From Pseudomonadota bacterium (GTDB lineage Bacteria; UBA10199; 2-02-FULL-44-16; JAAZCA01), in NCBI GenBank assembly GCA_016927275.1, contig JAFGMW010000095.1, forward strand, positions 9,247 through 73,246: DNA of 64,000 nucleotides. Direction: 5' to 3'. Shown here one piece after another: positions 36,460-57,753 of the stretch. Numbering within the stretch: position 1 is the first letter of the stretch; the number at the start of each line of letters is the position of its first letter. Under the pieces are notes generated by a model. It ran no database searches. It was given only the letters and a program-made list of their open reading frames with translations, and had not been told where the DNA came from. Made by a program: the position numbers and the translations under genes.

Positions 36460-36536
36460 TGGGGTGGCTAGTGGGATTTGAACCCACGACCCTCTGAGCC
36501 ACAGTCAGATGCGCTAGCCGCTGCGCCATAGCCACC
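36460..36536 (-). tRNA. tRNA-His (anticodon GTG) with G-1 and encoded CCA
   Basis: Minus-strand sequence GGTGGCTATGGCGCAGCGGCTAGCGCATCTGACTGTGGCTCAGAGGGTCGTGGGTTCAAATCCCACTAGCCACCCCA folds as cloverleaf; anticodon loop CTGTGGC; extra 5' G pairing with discriminator C is His-specific. Confidence 0.85.
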
Positions 36537-36597: not shown

Positions 36598-36731
36598 CTG
36601 GTGGGATTTGCCCACTCCGTTGCCGCCCTCCTGCGCTTACCTCCGGTAAGCTCCAGCGGGTCCTCGACGCCGCCTATGATTTTTCGACATTCGAAAAATC
36701 ATGCGGTCGTCGGGACTGCGCCATAGCCACC
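36598..36731 (-). pseudogene. partial tRNA-His duplicate / tRNA-like remnant interrupted by a ~95-nt structured insert
   Basis: Minus strand begins GGTGGCTATGGCGCAG (identical to tRNA-His 5' acceptor+D arm) and ends ..GGAGTGGGCAAATCCCACCAG (T-arm-like), but acceptor 3' strand and anticodon arm are replaced; contains perfect palindrome ATGATTTTTCGA-cat-TCGAAAAATCAT (36676-36702) and hairpin GCTTACC-gga-GGTAAGC; flank (ctgcgccatagccaccRtctttaaaaacaaattccaaat) duplicated. Confidence 0.45.
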
Positions 36732-36790
36732 GTCTTTAAAACAAATTCCAAATCCCAAGCACCAAATTCCAAACAATACTGAACCCAGTG

Positions 36791-36850
36791 CACCAGTCAC
36801 GAGTCACCAGTCACGAGTCACGAGTCACGAGTCACGAGTCACGAGTCACG
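36791..36850. repeat. tandem octamer repeat array (CAGTCACGAG/GTCACGAG)x7, member of the dispersed GTGACTSG repeat family
   Basis: caccagtcacgagtcaccagtcacgagtcacgagtcacgagtcacgagtcacgagtcacgg. Confidence 0.8.
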
Positions 36851-40801: not shown

Positions 40802-40815
40802 CGGACACCTCTTTT

Positions 40816-40887
40816 CGTGACTCGTAACTCGTGACTGGTAAAACCTTGTGTTTCACGCCAGTCACGAGTCACTAGTCACGAGTCACG
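40816..40887. repeat. inverted arrays of octamer repeats (CGTGACTCGTAACTCGTGACTGG ...17 nt... CCAGTCACGAGTCACTAGTCACGAGTCACG) forming a long hairpin
   Basis: Member of the dispersed GTGACTSG family; sits between IMPase stop and TPR start. Confidence 0.8.
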
Positions 40888-45201: not shown

Positions 45202-46311
<1,110 letters not shown>

Positions 46312-53054: not shown

Positions 53055-53520
53055 TTATCTCATCAAGCCCCATAACATTTTGCTGATGGCCTCAAGGCGC
53101 GATTTGAGGGCGGCTGCCTCAACTGGCGTGAGCAGCCTGAAGGCGCGCATGAGGTCGATGCAAGCGCCTACTTCGGCCGAGCTGGCGCGGGCGATCGTAA
53201 AGAAGCGGAAAACACAGAGCTCAGAGAGCAGATTCAGATTGAGAAAACAGATTAAGAAAACGGCGCTCAGAACTCGCCCTACCATCGCCTTACCATCGCA
53301 CTATCATCGTTTGATCATCGAACTATCATCGTATCTGTTTTTTTACCGGGCAACGGCAAACGTGCATACAGCCGCGAACGCCGCCGTTTCTTTCAAATCG
53401 CGCTCGGGTCGCTCGCCGAAACCAGCGCAGCACTCGATCTTGCGCTTGCCTTCGGCCTCATCACCTCTGCTGCGCAGGACTCGCTCAAATCGCGGCTCCA
53501 ACTCGCATTCACGATGATTG
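53055..53520 (-). pseudogene. degraded four-helix-bundle protein gene (23S rRNA intervening-sequence protein family), frameshifted
   Basis: One frame gives C-terminal ..TIARASSAEVGACIDL...LEAISKMLWGLMR; another upstream frame gives ..LRSRGDEAEGKRKIECCAGFGERPERDLKETAAF resembling the family's N-terminal half; no single intact ORF. Confidence 0.35.
53281..53335. repeat. five tandem 11-bp iteron-like repeats (ACCATCGCCTT/ACCATCGCACT/ATCATCGTTTG/ATCATCGAACT/ATCATCGTATC)
   Basis: Direct inspection; located inside the islet next to the degraded four-helix-bundle gene. Confidence 0.6.
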
Positions 53521-53565
53521 AGGCCCTCCCATGAGCCTCAATCTTCTCTCTCAGCTCGGCTTTCG

Positions 53566-53598
53566 GTGTTTCGGTTCTCGGTGTCTCGGTTCTCGTCT
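53566..53598. repeat. tandem ~15-bp repeats (GTGTYTCGGTTCTCG)
   Basis: tttcggtgtttcggttctcggtgtctcggttctcg. Confidence 0.55.
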
Positions 53599-53677
53599 TT
53601 TCGAGGTACTCGGTGGAAGGGGAAGGCGATGAAACTGCGATGGTGCTGCGATGATACGGCGATGATGAGGCGATTTT

Positions 53678-55192
<1,515 letters not shown>

Positions 55193-55198
55193 AAAATT

Positions 55199-55227
55199 CC
55201 GTGACTGGTGACTGGTGACTGGCGTGA
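55199..55227. repeat. octamer repeat array (CCGTGACTGGTGACTGGTGACTGG) between rSAM/DUF2344 stop and rng start
   Basis: Member of GTGACTSG family. Confidence 0.75.
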
Positions 55228-55230
55228 TAC

Positions 55231-57753
55231 TCATTGCTTCCAGTCAACAGAGACCTTTCTGACCTCCAGGCGCCGGGCCTGATCCTCCGGGATGCCGAAG
55301 ACCCCCTGCAGGACCTCCGAGACCTTGAGCGCGGGGCGCCGCGAATTGAGCGTGAGCCTTAACACACCTGACTCCGACACGGCAAGCTCGTCGACGTACT
55401 CCCGAAGATCCACCGCGAGCGAGATCTCCTTGCGGACCCTGGAGAAAGGCAGCGGTTTATCCGACGCGAACAGCCCCAAAGCCGCTTCCCAGCCGACCGG
55501 CAGCGAGGAGGTCGCTGCCTCGTACATGGTCCTGTGAGTCGACTCCTCGATGGAGGGGTGCGACCCGTCGATTCGCACCGCGTCCAGGACCGCCATCCCC
55601 TCCGGCAGCCTCCCCTTCATGCTCTTTACGATCTCGACTGCATCGCGCTCTACCGCAAGCTCCACGTCGGCGAACTCGACCAGGCTCTCCACGCCGACGG
55701 GGACCGCCGGCCCCGCGGCGATGCGGGCCCTGGGGTGGAATCCCTGCGAGTAGGTCAGCGGGAGCCTGGATGCGCGGAAGCCCCGGCGGAGCGCGTCGAG
55801 CGCCTCGAGGTGGCCGAGGAACGCGGCCCGGCCGATTTTGCTGAACCGGATGCGATACCTGAAGACCGTGACTGGTGACCGGTGACTGGTGACTGGTAAT
55901 TCTGGACCAGAAATCTGTGACTGACCGCCAGTCACTAGTAACGAGTCACGAGTCACGGGTGTTATACGATTCACCAGCCCCCTCTTCGGATCGCATATGC
56001 CGCAGGCGGAGCAGGCCCCCCCCGCGCAGTCCTCGGTGGCGAAAAGCGCCGCGGCGCGCCGCCTCTCCCTCTCGAGAAAATCGCGCGAGGGGCCGGCGCC
56101 GAGGCCCTCCCACGGGAAAACGCAATCGTCCGGCCGCGCCTCGAGATACCGGTTCGGATCGATCCCCGCCTCGGCGAACGCATCCATCCAGAGCGCGATG
56201 TCGAGGCGCTCGTCCCAGCCGTCGAAGCGCGCGCCCTTTTTCATGGCGATCTCTATCGCGTCCGCGAGCTCCCCGCCGCCGCGCGAGAACACCCCCTCGA
56301 GAAAACTCATCCTGGCGCTGTGCCAGCGGTACTCGAGCCCCGGGCCGCGCAGCGTCCTCTTGAGCCTGCGCTGGATCCTCTCCGTCTCCTCGATCGATAT
56401 CTGCCCCTCCCACTGCAGCGGGGTGTGGGCCTTGGGCACAAAGGTGGAGGTGGAAACTGTGACCGTGGGCCTCCTGTGATGTTTTCTCCCTATGGCGAGG
56501 CAGCGGCGTGCGACCCTCTCGATCCCCTCGATCTCGGCCTCGGTCTCCCCGGGGAGGCCGATCATGAAGTAGAGCTTCACCGCCGAGAAGCCGCCGGCGA
56601 AGACCTTCTCGACCGACGAGTAGAGATCGTCGTCGGTGTTCCCCTTGTTCACGAAGCGACGCATCCGCTCGGTGGCGGCCTCGGGGGCCAGCGTGAACGA
56701 GCCTGCGCGGGCGCTCCCCATGGAGGCGACCACCCTTGGGGTGAGCGACTCGACCCTGAGGCTGGGGAGGGTGGCGTCCACCGAGAGCGCGCAGTCGCGC
56801 TGCACCGCCTCGAGCGCGCCCTCGAGCGGGGGCCAGTCGCCGATGGAGAGCGATAGGAACGAGAACTCCTCTTTGCCGCCGGCCTCTATCGCTTCGCAGG
56901 CGATCGACGCGGCCGCAGCGCCGGACCTCTGCCTCTGCGGGCGGTAAGTGTAGCCGGCCTGGCAGAATCTGCAGCCGCGCGTGCAGCCGCGCGCCGCCTC
57001 GACCGCGGCGCGCTCCTGCGTGGCCGCGTGGGCCACGACCTGTCTTGCAGGAAAAGGGATCGCATCCAGGTCTTCCACCCTGGCCATTCCCGGCGGCCGC
57101 GCTCCATCCGCATCGTGAATCGCGGGGACATAGACGCCTCTTATCGCGCTCAACGCCTCAAGCAGCCCGGCTCGATCTTGAATCGACCCCTTGACCTTTG
57201 ACCTTTCAGCTCTGAGCTCCCTGACTGCGCGTGCGATCTCTACGGCCGCCCGCTCGCCGTCGCCGATCACGATCGCGTCGAAGAACGGGGCCACGGGCAT
57301 GGGGTTGAACGCGCACGGCCCCCCTGCCACGACGACCGGATCGCCATCGCCCCTGTCGGAGGAGCGCAGCGGTACGCCGCCCAGCTCGAGGGCGGCCAGC
57401 GCGTTCGTGTAGGTGAGCTCATAGGCGAGGCTCACCCCCACGACGTCGAACTCCCGAAGGGTCCGCTGAGACTCGAGCGAGAAGAGGCCGATCCCCCGCC
57501 CCCTGAGCCCCTCCTCCATGTCCGGCCACGGCGAGAAGCACCTGTCCGCCAGCACCCCCTCCTCTGAATTGAGGAGGTGGTAGAGGATACAGACCCCCAG
57601 GTGGCTCATGCCGATCTCGTAAGCATCTGGAAATACAAGACAAAAACGGACATCGGCATCATCCCACCCCTTCGCGCGCGCGCCCACCTCGCCGCCCGCA
57701 TAGCGGTATGGGCGGGCCACAGAGGCAATGAGATCGCGTATTTCCGGGCGCAT
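55231..57753 (-). CDS. B12-binding-domain radical SAM protein (TIGR03960-like) continuous in-frame with a C-terminal DUF2344 (TIGR03936-like) domain
   Basis: CTRGCRFCQAGY radical-SAM motif; C-terminal region VFRYRIRFSKIGRAAFLGHLEALDALRRG.. matches DUF2344; the two parts are joined in-frame across the octamer repeat locus 55866-55958; no independent start codon for the DUF2344 part. Confidence 0.7.
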   Translation of the reverse strand: MRPEIRDLIASVARPYRYAGGEVGARAKGWDDADVRFCLVFPDAYEIGMSHLGVCILYHLLNSEEGVLADRCFSPWPDMEEGLRGRGIGLFSLESQRTLREFDVVGVSLAYELTYTNALAALELGGVPLRSSDRGDGDPVVVAGGPCAFNPMPVAPFFDAIVIGDGERAAVEIARAVRELRAERSKVKGSIQDRAGLLEALSAIRGVYVPAIHDADGARPPGMARVEDLDAIPFPARQVVAHAATQERAAVEAARGCTRGCRFCQAGYTYRPQRQRSGAAAASIACEAIEAGGKEEFSFLSLSIGDWPPLEGALEAVQRDCALSVDATLPSLRVESLTPRVVASMGSARAGSFTLAPEAATERMRRFVNKGNTDDDLYSSVEKVFAGGFSAVKLYFMIGLPGETEAEIEGIERVARRCLAIGRKHHRRPTVTVSTSTFVPKAHTPLQWEGQISIEETERIQRRLKRTLRGPGLEYRWHSARMSFLEGVFSRGGGELADAIEIAMKKGARFDGWDERLDIALWMDAFAEAGIDPNRYLEARPDDCVFPWEGLGAGPSRDFLERERRRAAALFATEDCAGGACSACGICDPKRGLVNRITPVTRDSLLVTGGQSQISGPELPVTSHRSPVTVFRYRIRFSKIGRAAFLGHLEALDALRRGFRASRLPLTYSQGFHPRARIAAGPAVPVGVESLVEFADVELAVERDAVEIVKSMKGRLPEGMAVLDAVRIDGSHPSIEESTHRTMYEAATSSLPVGWEAALGLFASDKPLPFSRVRKEISLAVDLREYVDELAVSESGVLRLTLNSRRPALKVSEVLQGVFGIPEDQARRLEVRKVSVDWKQ
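55866..55958. repeat. inverted octamer-repeat arrays (CCGTGACTGGTGACCGGTGACTGGTGACTGG ...31 nt... CCAGTCACTAGTAACGAGTCACGAGTCACGG) lying in-frame inside the rSAM-DUF2344 ORF
   Basis: Member of GTGACTSG family; translated as ..TPVTRDSLLVTGGQSQISGPELPVTSHRSPVT.. linker. Confidence 0.75.

Follow-up and report, generated by a model that had tools for sequence, protein, structure and literature searches.

A tandem-heptamer hairpin as the probable translated interdomain tether of a fused radical SAM and DUF2344 gene

In the window, i.e., the whole 64,000-nucleotide stretch of DNA analyzed here, a gene of 840 codons was found on the minus strand, and its product was identical to an NCBI-annotated protein (P0001). 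The gene encodes two domains separated by a linker that coincides with an inverted repeat, and similar repeats occur elsewhere in the window. The features considered below were as follows:

55231..57753, minus strand: fused radical SAM and DUF2344 gene, 840 codons, with an ATG start and a TGA stop at 55231-55233
55984..57732, minus strand: TIGR03960 B12-binding-type radical SAM part, residues 8-590 (profile match)
57191..57206, minus strand: mini heptamer array in the radical SAM part, AAGGTCA x2.3 in gene orientation, encoding a KVKGS insertion
56962..56985, minus strand: codons of the CxxxCxxC radical SAM cluster motif (CTRGCRFC; C257, C261, C264; translation)
55861..55983, minus strand: interdomain linker, residues 591-631, with a sequence unconserved among orthologues (alignment A1)
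55928..55958, minus strand: 5' arm of the linker hairpin, in gene orientation CC GTGACTC GTGACTC GTTACTA GTGACTG G, encoding PVTRDSLLVTG
55940..55940, minus strand: base change in the third unit of the 5' arm (mRNA T for canonical G), by which an in-frame TGA becomes TTA
55897..55927, minus strand: hairpin loop, 31 nt, unlike the loops of the other hairpins of the window
55866..55896, minus strand: 3' arm of the linker hairpin, in gene orientation CCAGTCA CCAGTCA CCGGTCA CCAGTCA CGG, in the stop-free orientation, encoding PVTSHRSPVT
55249..55860, minus strand: TIGR03936/DUF2344 domain, residues 632-835 (profile match)
55199..55222, minus strand: single heptamer arm with the sequence (CCAGTCA)x3 CGG, located in the spacer (38 nt) from the stop of the fused gene to the likely start of rng
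53678..55192, minus strand: rng, Rne/Rng-family RNase, likely ATG at 55192, directly downstream of the fused gene
46228-46310: hairpin copy between rpmA and obg
40815-40887: hairpin copy between an inositol monophosphatase gene (its TGA within the 5' arm of the hairpin) and a TPR gene

Both parts of the protein scored above the curated NCBIfam cut-offs, with 560.9 bits for TIGR03960 (residues 8-590, cut-off 462.3) and 134.8 bits for TIGR03936, fused to it in frame (residues 632-835, cut-off 71.9). Pfam matches were obtained for Radical_SAM_N2 (PF19864; residues 53-210, E = 1.7e-53), Radical_SAM (PF04055; residues 254-411, E = 4.6e-15) and DUF2344, and the CTRGCRFC columns (residues 257-264) were invariant across alignment A1. 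Sequence search for relatives with solved structures gave marginal radical SAM matches only; the structural matches of the radical SAM part detected with Foldseek were MgmA, AprD4, CysS, TokK and MiaB. In the AlphaFold model of the whole fusion (pLDDT 86.9, pTM 0.88), both domains were confident, and pLDDT fell below 50 in two segments only, namely, residues 604-626, encoded by the hairpin, and residues 186-188, located in the mini heptamer array; larger heptamer arrays were present in orthologues at the variable region matching the latter. The locus 55231-57753 is one gene, in which a TIGR03960 radical SAM enzyme and its partner domain, TIGR03936/DUF2344, are joined covalently. The downstream RNase matched TIGR00757 with 520.7 bits and the RNase G equivalog model with 565.6 bits, slightly below the cut-off of 594. 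A longer rng ORF starting at 55234 would translate the heptamer arm of the spacer, whereas the family match begins only at residue 16 of that ORF; the orthologous proteins are 504-509 aa long. Thus, an earlier note on this DNA, made from the sequence alone, was correct as to the 840-aa frame and its ATG start, the motif CTRGCRFCQAG, the B12-type radical SAM and DUF2344 domains, and the RNase G neighbor, with the reservation that the score of the latter lies below the equivalog cut-off.

The inverted repeat 55866-55958 that the earlier note had placed between the domains was found there, with 31-nt arms (84% complementary) and a 31-nt loop; it spans codons 599-630 and falls precisely between the matches of the two domains, and only 5 nt separate the end of the 3' arm from the conserved RYR motif that opens the DUF2344 match. 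The 93-nt hairpin folds at -44 kcal/mol (z = -5.3 against shuffled controls). Each arm consists of about four tandem heptamers, GTGACTS in the 5' arm and, inverted, SAGTCAC in the 3' arm; TRF gave a period of 7 with 4.3 and 4.0 copies, so the unit is a heptamer and not the octamer previously described. Chance would give 0.13 occurrences of GTGACNNGTGAC in the window, where 21 were counted.

The orientation of the repeat determines whether it can be read. Pure (GTGACTC)n contains TGA in all frames, the canonical 5' arm meeting it in every frame within three units, whereas (GAGTCAC)n is stop-free. When the canonical unit 3 was restored in silico, a stop appeared at codon 605. Through the actual hairpin, one of the six frames was open, and this was the frame of the gene, the other five being closed by stops, which agrees with the claim that the repeat is stop-free there. 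Equally, the DUF2344 part lacks an ATG or GTG of its own, as had been stated: even with TTG counted, no in-frame start was found between the 3' arm and codon 688, i.e., 56 codons into DUF2344. No Shine-Dalgarno-like sequence followed the 3' arm, and scans revealed no promoter-like site in the linker region, so that neither an internal promoter nor an internal start for DUF2344 was found. No terminator-like site was detected at the hairpin, which has no U-tract and is flanked on its 3' side by GGUCUUCAGGUAUCGC, and an Rfam search of the window returned a single tRNA and no known RNA family at the hairpin.

The linker copy belongs to a hairpin family that is otherwise intercistronic in the window. 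The sister copies form strong stem-loops (-46 kcal/mol) between operon cistrons, with the upstream stop falling within or beside the 5' arm and 6-14 nt separating the 3' arm from the start that follows. The loops of the three full hairpins were mutually unrelated, and no flanking target-site duplication was seen at the hairpin junctions of the window. The single arm in the spacer before rng repeats the linker 3' arm in direct orientation (24 nt, 96%), and in this way the DUF2344 coding part is flanked by the arm on either side; the same arrangement was found in the orthologous locus L084. The gene order fusion-rng-(rplU-rpmA-obg) was common to orthologues.

Nearly all of the best 120 homologues were fusions of about 800-870 aa (803-871 aa), with three lacking DUF2344 and three being shorter fragments. 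Among distant species representatives, 58 of 79 carried the fusion with an open linker and 16 were split. Fusion is consequently the commonest state of the family and cannot be called unusual. Linkers similar in length to that of the window were present in orthologues with 55-69% identity, and 8 of 11 carried short tandem arrays, which were heptameric in seven and belonged to several different units; such arrays also occupied the linkers of Nitrospirota and Methylomirabilis. The judgment of the earlier note that both a repeat translated inside a fused gene and a repeat separating two genes would be unusual was therefore half right, since the fusion is ordinary and the linker repeat recurs in the clade as well as in other phyla. 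In the same spot just before DUF2344, (GAGTCAC)x4 was 86-100% regular in orthologues of only 55-60% protein identity, while in the closest orthologue, L081, the array was decayed. Occupancy of the linker was far above what would be expected if about 15 arrays per 100 kb were placed at random. When 12 clade linkers were folded against shuffles, four were strongly structured (z < -3), and six had z >= -0.7, their arrays having no inverted partner. In the relative L212 (57% identity), the two parts were encoded by overlapping genes, DUF2344 began at an ordinary ATG, and the linker was entirely absent; the split relatives in general had a clear ATG and Shine-Dalgarno sequence for DUF2344. An orthologue with its own DUF2344 start, which was to have spoken against an unusual junction, thus exists, although the window gene is not thereby split.

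The array density was 12.5 per 100 kb, compared with 2.2 in distant taxa, and most arrays comprised about 3-5 units. Similar arrays also flank 23S-rRNA-IVS four-helix-bundle genes. The element was present in many free-living lineages with 46-76% G+C. On other contigs, GAGTCAC arrays were found in frame in DnaE, an AddA-like helicase, a class-III aminotransferase, a MeaB-mutase fusion, TrmD and a Wzy-like protein; in the DnaE copy, the TGA position of the 5' arm was mutated, as in the window linker. Among metagenomic GAGTCAC arrays, about 18 of 81 had a long-ORF start no more than 20 nt from the CACGG end. A literature search on GAGTCAC arrays and SHESRVT peptides found nothing relevant.

Taken together, it is probable that the locus is one fused gene whose junction is a copy of a lineage-wide heptamer hairpin family, tolerated there and translated as a tether. 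The ribosome would read straight through the -44 kcal/mol stem, as the open frame suggests, and produce a disordered linker of about 32 residues rich in Ser, Thr, Pro and His. Such a copy could be tolerated because the tether would have no sequence requirement, and both parts presumably function as separate polypeptides in some relatives; the 5' arm would have been made frame-compatible by the one substitution that removes the canonical TGA. The hairpin itself appears to be a passenger without a selected role of its own. Of the two alternatives offered earlier, this is the first, i.e., one fused gene with the repeat in its linker, translated as about 30 aa, and it is favored by the sole open frame, the removed TGA and the absence of a DUF2344 start, as well as by the fused orthologues with repeat-built linkers of similar length and the coincidence of the low-confidence AlphaFold loop with the repeat. 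L212, split and without a linker, indicates that the tether is dispensable.

Three observations speak against the passenger model. The regularity of the arrays (86-100%) despite protein divergence requires either continuing homogenization or re-insertion, or else selection on the array, and the over-occupancy of the linker fits a permissive site and equally a preferred or useful one. A pure passenger model does not explain the direct arm repeat flanking the DUF2344 part.

A different view, which we consider improbable but the strongest of the competitors, is that the hairpin is selected on the mRNA, either as a pause at the domain boundary that aids folding or cluster loading of the radical SAM part, or as a site of RNase III or RNase E/G processing or stability that tunes DUF2344-rng expression. 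The stem is much stronger than expected from shuffles (-44 kcal/mol, z = -5.3), and the arrays are kept at the linker site across diverged orthologues. Translational coupling or processing would be compatible with the layout of the sister hairpins at cistron junctions, a long-ORF start lies nearby (<=20 nt) in about 18 of 81 metagenomic arrays, and, by analogy, Correia hairpins are documented to be cleaved by RNase III (PMC10969869). However, strong folding in only 4 of 12 clade linkers means that RNA structure is not the conserved feature, and a conserved linker RNA structure was rejected on this ground; the array of L081 is decayed and L212 is linker-free. In addition, cleavage within a fused ORF would leave non-stop upstream and start-less downstream fragments, and the hairpin shows neither a U-tract or terminator signature nor an Rfam match.

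In a bolder form, to which we likewise give only a small chance, (GTGACTS)n-loop-(SAGTCAC)n-GG hairpins would be a widespread, undescribed and portable bacterial junction module, in which the 5' arm stops all frames, the next start follows the stop-free 3' arm at a distance of a few bases, and the stem couples or processes the cistrons. Such a module could switch TIGR03960/TIGR03936 between split and fused states by the TGA base change or by 7-nt slippage, and would be retained for the expression of DUF2344 and rng rather than as junk.

Slippage has also to be weighed as phase variation, in which a 7-nt shift of the frame would uncouple DUF2344, and possibly rng, in a subpopulation. The unit is not divisible by three, two arrays of about four units lie inside the ORF (codons 599-630), relatives include fused and split states, and heptanucleotide switching is known in Haemophilus, which offers an analogy. 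This is nevertheless quite unlikely: four units are few for a high slippage rate, variant units break up the arrays, all of the 11 other orthologue genes keep the frame, and the gene is of a conserved housekeeping type and not a surface or restriction gene. The homologue P0044 (717 aa) is frameshifted exactly after the linker arrays; however, its contig, L091, also carries fragmented CPSase and rng genes, an indel error of the assembly is the most likely cause of the shift, and P0044 was discarded as evidence.

Somewhat less probable still is the second alternative of the earlier note, two genes spaced apart by the repeat; DUF2344 would then be translated from a non-canonical start or by reinitiation. 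Other members of this hairpin family in the window lie between cistrons, and L212 as well as 16 of 79 distant species encode the two parts as separate genes, but the junction contains neither a stop nor a start: the stop of the canonical arm has been mutated away, the first ATG, GTG or TTG lies 56 codons into DUF2344, and the Shine-Dalgarno-like sequence and start codon that split relatives possess are both missing. An assembly or sequencing artefact creating a false open frame can be practically dismissed, for although short repeats are error-prone, the source is a metagenome-assembled genome and L091 shows such errors, the linker is open and repeat-filled in ten independent orthologue assemblies, the flanking domains are in phase, and the neighboring genes of the window are intact.

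If the repeat is translated as a tether, peptides of the SHESRVT or PVTSH type in such proteins should be annotated as translated repeat DNA. Tandem heptamer hairpins are usually described as intergenic, whereas here one protein tether appears to have been colonized repeatedly, in several phyla and by different units. Heptamer arrays also lie in essential genes such as dnaE and trmD, where they survive only in the stop-free orientation or with the TGA edited. This provides a simple rule for where such repeat DNA can live, and a natural marker of structurally permissive sites.

The partner domain offers a lead on function. The predicted fold of DUF2344 is that of TruA-type pseudouridine synthases, with 13-14% identity to TruA and no match to Pfam PseudoU_synth even at E <= 10; the relationship is one of shared fold only, and DUF2344 is not claimed to be a pseudouridine synthase. 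The literature searched on the function of TIGR03960/DUF2344 contained nothing relevant. A testable functional lead is given by the TruA-like fold together with the neighboring genes, one of RNase G/E type and, in orthologues, those for L21, L27 and Obg: the whole fusion protein probably acts on RNA, and tRNA or rRNA may be the substrate that this widespread, uncharacterized radical SAM enzyme modifies.

Compared with known repeats, the element resembles the Rickettsia palindromic elements (RPE) and other intragenic MITE-like palindromes, such as ERIC and the Coxiella QMITE (PMC10969869), in being a palindrome of about 100 nt that lies in frame in unrelated housekeeping genes and probably contributes an extra translated peptide at a structurally permissive place. 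It shares with MITE and RPE elements the terminal inverted repeats (31-nt arms) and the in-frame intragenic copies, and differs from them in that tandem heptamer arrays take the place of one unique inverted repeat as arms, no internal sequence is common to the loops of the three window hairpins, target-site duplications are not evident, many free-living lineages carry it, and one orientation has stops in all frames and would need editing before translation. As heptameric simple sequence repeats, the arrays have head-to-tail 7-nt units in dispersed copies far above chance, and they resemble the STRR of Nostoc and Calothrix and the GGGNATC repeats of Xanthomonas and Nostoc (PMC4692102), which are likewise dispersed tandem heptamers, mostly of about 3-5 units, located mostly between co-directional ORFs, near stop or start codons. 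In contrast to those, the unit GAGTCAC/GTGACTC has no G-runs and thus lacks the G-quadruplex potential of the GGGNATC class, and arrays often come in pairs that form inverted arms. Moreover, the published STRR and GGGNATC repeats are reported to be under-represented in ORFs (PMC4692102), whereas the window copy and several copies in other organisms lie in coding sequence and are predicted to be translated. The sister copies of the window are similar to REP and Correia-type hairpins (PMC10969869) as strong intercistronic stem-loops, and RNase III cuts Correia-element hairpins in mRNAs (PMC10969869); the linker copy differs from these by its position inside an ORF and by a structure that is unconserved among orthologue linkers. 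In Desulfuromonadales and Geobacteraceae, the corresponding linker is an ordinary acidic or proline-rich one of about 30 aa without DNA repeats. At the level of the protein family, the gene is the same as other NCBI-annotated TIGR03960/TIGR03936 fusions, and what is special here is only the DNA that encodes the tether.

The fused radical SAM–DUF2344 gene and the repeats within it were located as follows:
55231–57753, minus strand: fused ORF of 840 codons with an ATG start
55866–55958: inverted repeat, two 31-nt arms, 84% complementary, spaced by 31 nt
57191–57206: mini heptamer array (AAGGTCA × 2.3) encoding residues 186–188

The 840-codon frame described in the earlier note was recovered with both of its parts, residues 8–590 matching TIGR03960 (B12-binding radical SAM; 560.9 bits, cut-off 462.3) and residues 632–835 matching TIGR03936 (radical SAM-associated protein; Pfam DUF2344; 134.8 bits, cut-off 71.9), and the radical SAM cluster motif CTRGCRFC reported there lies at residues 257–264. 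A protein identical to the 840-aa product is already present in NCBI. The same note called both of its readings unusual, but the fusion itself is not: almost all 120 top homologues were ~800–870 aa long and had all three Pfam domains (three lacked DUF2344 and three were shorter fragments), and among 79 distant species representatives the two parts shared one open frame in 58, were split in 16, and had an undetectable second part in 5. The fused state is thus the normal one in the TIGR03960/TIGR03936 family.

The 93-nt repeat corresponds to codons 599–630 and takes up precisely the interval from one domain match to the other, at the junction where it had been claimed to lie. Tandem Repeats Finder revealed period 7 in both arms (4.3 and 4.0 copies), so the unit is the heptamer GTGACTS and not an octamer as first described; GTGACNNGTGAC occurred 21 times in the window versus 0.13 expected. 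Only one of the six frames through the 93 nt is open, namely the gene's own, which had been noted as stop-free. Three units of pure (GTGACTC)n or (GTGACTG)n suffice to put a TGA into all frames, whereas (GAGTCAC)n or (CAGTCAC)n, the reverse orientation, has no stop at all. The 5′ arm in the fused gene has the stop-carrying orientation, and its third unit is GTTACTA in place of the canonical GTGACTC, so that the codons read TCG TTA and not TCG TGA; restoring the canonical unit creates a stop at codon 605 (substituted base at 55940). In the AlphaFold model of the whole protein, built with 27 homologues (pLDDT 86.9, pTM 0.88), pLDDT was below 50 only in residues 604–626, encoded by the hairpin, and 186–188; thus, the residues encoded by repeats were exactly the segments not modelled as ordered.

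The explanation we consider likely is that of a single gene: a lineage-wide heptamer-array element would have landed or arisen in the sequence-tolerant tether between the domains, its hairpin copy would have been retained only in a frame-compatible form, and this copy would be translated as a disordered linker. Ribosomes would be expected to translate through the stem, and the element presumably has no function of its own.

The linker was present in clade orthologues. Linker DNA was taken from eleven of them (55–69% protein identity), eight of which had TRF-detectable tandem arrays, with heptamers among the arrays in seven of the eight; the other three had decayed arrays or other hairpins. The arrays in clade loci and in more distant relatives were as follows:
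(GAGTCAC)×4, just 5′ of the DUF2344 start: L083, L084, L085, L086, and L090
(GATCACC)×4 and (CCCCGAT)×5, linker: L082
Inverted (CGAACGA) arms, linker: L001
Period-9 array, linker: L087
Heptamer arrays, linker, Nitrospirota: L011 (AGAAGTC) and L034 (CACGATC)
Heptamer array, linker, Methylomirabilis: L035 (CCCGACA)

The arrays in the clade, Nitrospirota and Methylomirabilis linkers indicate that the tether is a recurrent sink for short repeats; the linkers of Desulfuromonadales and Geobacteraceae are plain and ~30 aa long. The closest orthologue, L081 (69% identity), has a decayed array and L212 (57% identity) has no linker, so the tether is dispensable and free to vary. In several orthologues, heptamer arrays were also observed in a second variable region of the fused gene (alignment columns ~200–250, after Radical_SAM_N2; L001 4557–4709, L082 4531–4566, and L089 4517–4681), where the units ACCGGGG, TTCCCGG, CGAAGGG and GGACCGG give insertions of 20–40 aa; the window retains only the 2.3-unit remnant there. 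A second kind of repeat, hairpins translating as PPLCKGRLGGV, PPVSKGGMGG or PPFSKGGHGG, is translated in the fused-gene linker of several lineages (L089, L011, L035, and the homologous protein P0051).

An mRNA-level role of the hairpin, for example as a pause or processing site, is unlikely. Only four of the 12 clade linkers folded much better than shuffles (the window, with z −3.9 in this 12-linker test, L001, L081, and L089), but six had arrays without an inverted partner (z ≥ −0.7), and RNA structure is not a conserved feature of the linkers. The lack of an inverted partner fits with the stops that an arm in the inverted orientation would bring. Phase variation through 7-nt slippage is very improbable: P0044, the sole frameshifted homologue and the candidate evidence for it, lies on L091 (contig_38124, sample ERZ25039462), where numerous genes are disrupted (CPSase and rng besides the radical SAM–DUF2344 fusion), and its frameshift was therefore taken as an assembly error. 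L091 seems to be rich in assembly indels, which makes its frameshifted proteins unfit as biological evidence.

There is slightly less to be said for two genes, the second with an odd start, the alternative that the earlier note had set beside a repeat in the linker of a fused gene. In L212, the radical SAM gene does end in TAA and DUF2344 has its own ATG, 17 nt upstream of that end and after a GGGGTG Shine-Dalgarno-like sequence, but the genes overlap there, with no intergenic gap. In the window, no in-frame ATG, GTG or TTG was found past the hairpin before codon 688, 56 codons into DUF2344, in line with the reported lack of an ATG or GTG of its own, and scanning gave neither a promoter-like site in the region nor, at the hairpin, a terminator-like one. 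Together with the sole open frame and the edited TGA, this points to one gene. An artefact is practically out of the question.

Several relatives of the linker hairpin were found in the window, the full hairpins being intercistronic. These and other repeat features were as follows:
36463–36535, minus strand: tRNA gene
36791–36850: GAGTCAC array, 8.6 units, after a duplication of the tRNA end
40815–40887: full hairpin (−46 kcal/mol) between the inositol-monophosphatase gene and a TPR gene
46228–46310: full hairpin between rpmA and obg
53235–53261 and 53555–53595: arrays, periods 13 and 7/8/15
53274–53331 versus 53624–53674: inverted array pair, period 11/22
55199–55222: single arm in the spacer from the fused-gene stop to the likely rng start

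The window elements had constant polarity, (GTGACTS)n, loop, (SAGTCAC)n, GG, 6–14 nt and start codon, with mutually unrelated loops; the TGA stop of the inositol-monophosphatase gene falls within the 5′ arm of its hairpin. The density of period-7 arrays per 100 kb was 12.5 in the window and 17.3 in the eleven close orthologue loci, 6–8 times that in 79 distant-taxon loci (2.2). An Rfam search gave no family match for the element. The 5′ end of the tRNA gene, with its upstream CAAATTC heptamer array, is duplicated ~190 nt off (36710–36775). At 53055–53680, 3′ of rng, inverted pairs of short tandem arrays of several kinds flank two 23S-rRNA-intervening-sequence (four-helix-bundle) gene fragments, one on each strand (Pfam PF05635, E 6e-6 and 5e-8, in each case slightly below the gathering score); the 11-nt unit GCGATGATACT of an array 3′ of rng recurs in L086 and L088, likewise downstream of rng.

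The exact 23-mer (GAGTCAC)3GG was found in at least 120 metagenome contigs (46–76% G+C), most arrays having three to five units among the matches listed, and in about 18 of 81 arrays the CACGG end lay no more than 20 nt from the start of a long ORF. Several known genes include translated, in-frame GAGTCAC arrays or full hairpins (contigs L121 2390–2570, L125, L098, L148, L164, and L100; 46–58% G+C), namely, those for DNA polymerase III alpha (DnaE), a UvrD/AddA-like helicase-nuclease, a class-III aminotransferase, a MeaB–methylmalonyl-CoA-mutase fusion, TrmD, and a Wzy-type protein. The DnaE copy sits between the PHP and polymerase domains, and the third unit of its 5′ arm is GTCGCTC, so that TGA is again removed.

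The neighbour claimed as RNase G is an Rne/Rng-family RNase directly downstream of the fused gene (TIGR00757, 520.7 bits), but its RNase G equivalog score of 565.6 is slightly below the cut-off of 594. This gene was directly downstream in all 12 related loci retrieved by protein look-up; rplU and rpmA followed it in most of the longer loci, and obg in several. The L27 and Obg genes come directly after the RNase gene in most orthologues and lie intact ~7 kb downstream in the window. The longest rng ORF (53678–55234) has its ATG at 55234 and would translate the heptamer arm (MSITPVTSHQSRNF...); since the family match begins at residue 16 and orthologues are 504–509 aa long, the true start is probably the ATG at 55192, 6 nt past the arm. 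Arrays or hairpins were also observed at the fused gene/rng junction of orthologues (L083 6458–6548, L085 3467–3557, L082 6522–6550, and L089 6605–6648), for example, inverted period-9 GCAAGCAAC arms spanning the stop codon, the 5′ arm being translated as a C-terminal extension, e.g., ASNASNVNNASNA.

The DUF2344 domain modelled alone reached pLDDT 95.9 and had no sequence-level match to pseudouridine synthase families; the N-terminal part of the fused protein is similar in fold to B12-dependent radical SAM methylases and MiaB. This fold likeness and the neighbouring RNase G/E-type, L27 and Obg genes suggest that the fused protein may be an RNA-modifying enzyme.

Against a pure passenger speak the (GAGTCAC)×4 arrays, still 86–100% regular at this one position although the genomes have only 55–60% protein identity, the linker carrying arrays far more often than random placement predicts, and the heptamer arm present as a direct repeat on either side of the DUF2344-coding segment, in the window (55199–55222 and 55866–55889; 24 nt, 96%) and in L084 (5812–5842 and 6586–6611). 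The flanking arms may reflect local array spread or be a recombination substrate.

A literature search found no paper on GAGTCAC arrays or the peptides encoded by them, nor on the function of the TIGR03960/TIGR03936 enzyme family, of which the protein encoded in the window is an ordinary member. Two MITE features that were tested, target-site duplication and a conserved core, are lacking in the linker hairpin. Intragenic palindromes, among them the Rickettsia palindromic elements, are inserted in frame and translated (PMC10969869), and the linker hairpin behaves like them, being in frame and presumably translated. In cyanobacteria and Xanthomonas, the heptameric repeats positioned near ORF ends (PMC4692102) are similar in unit length, copy number (about four units per arm in the window hairpin, three to five for the majority of arrays) and position, whereas the linker element lacks G-runs, is paired into hairpins and is probably translated.
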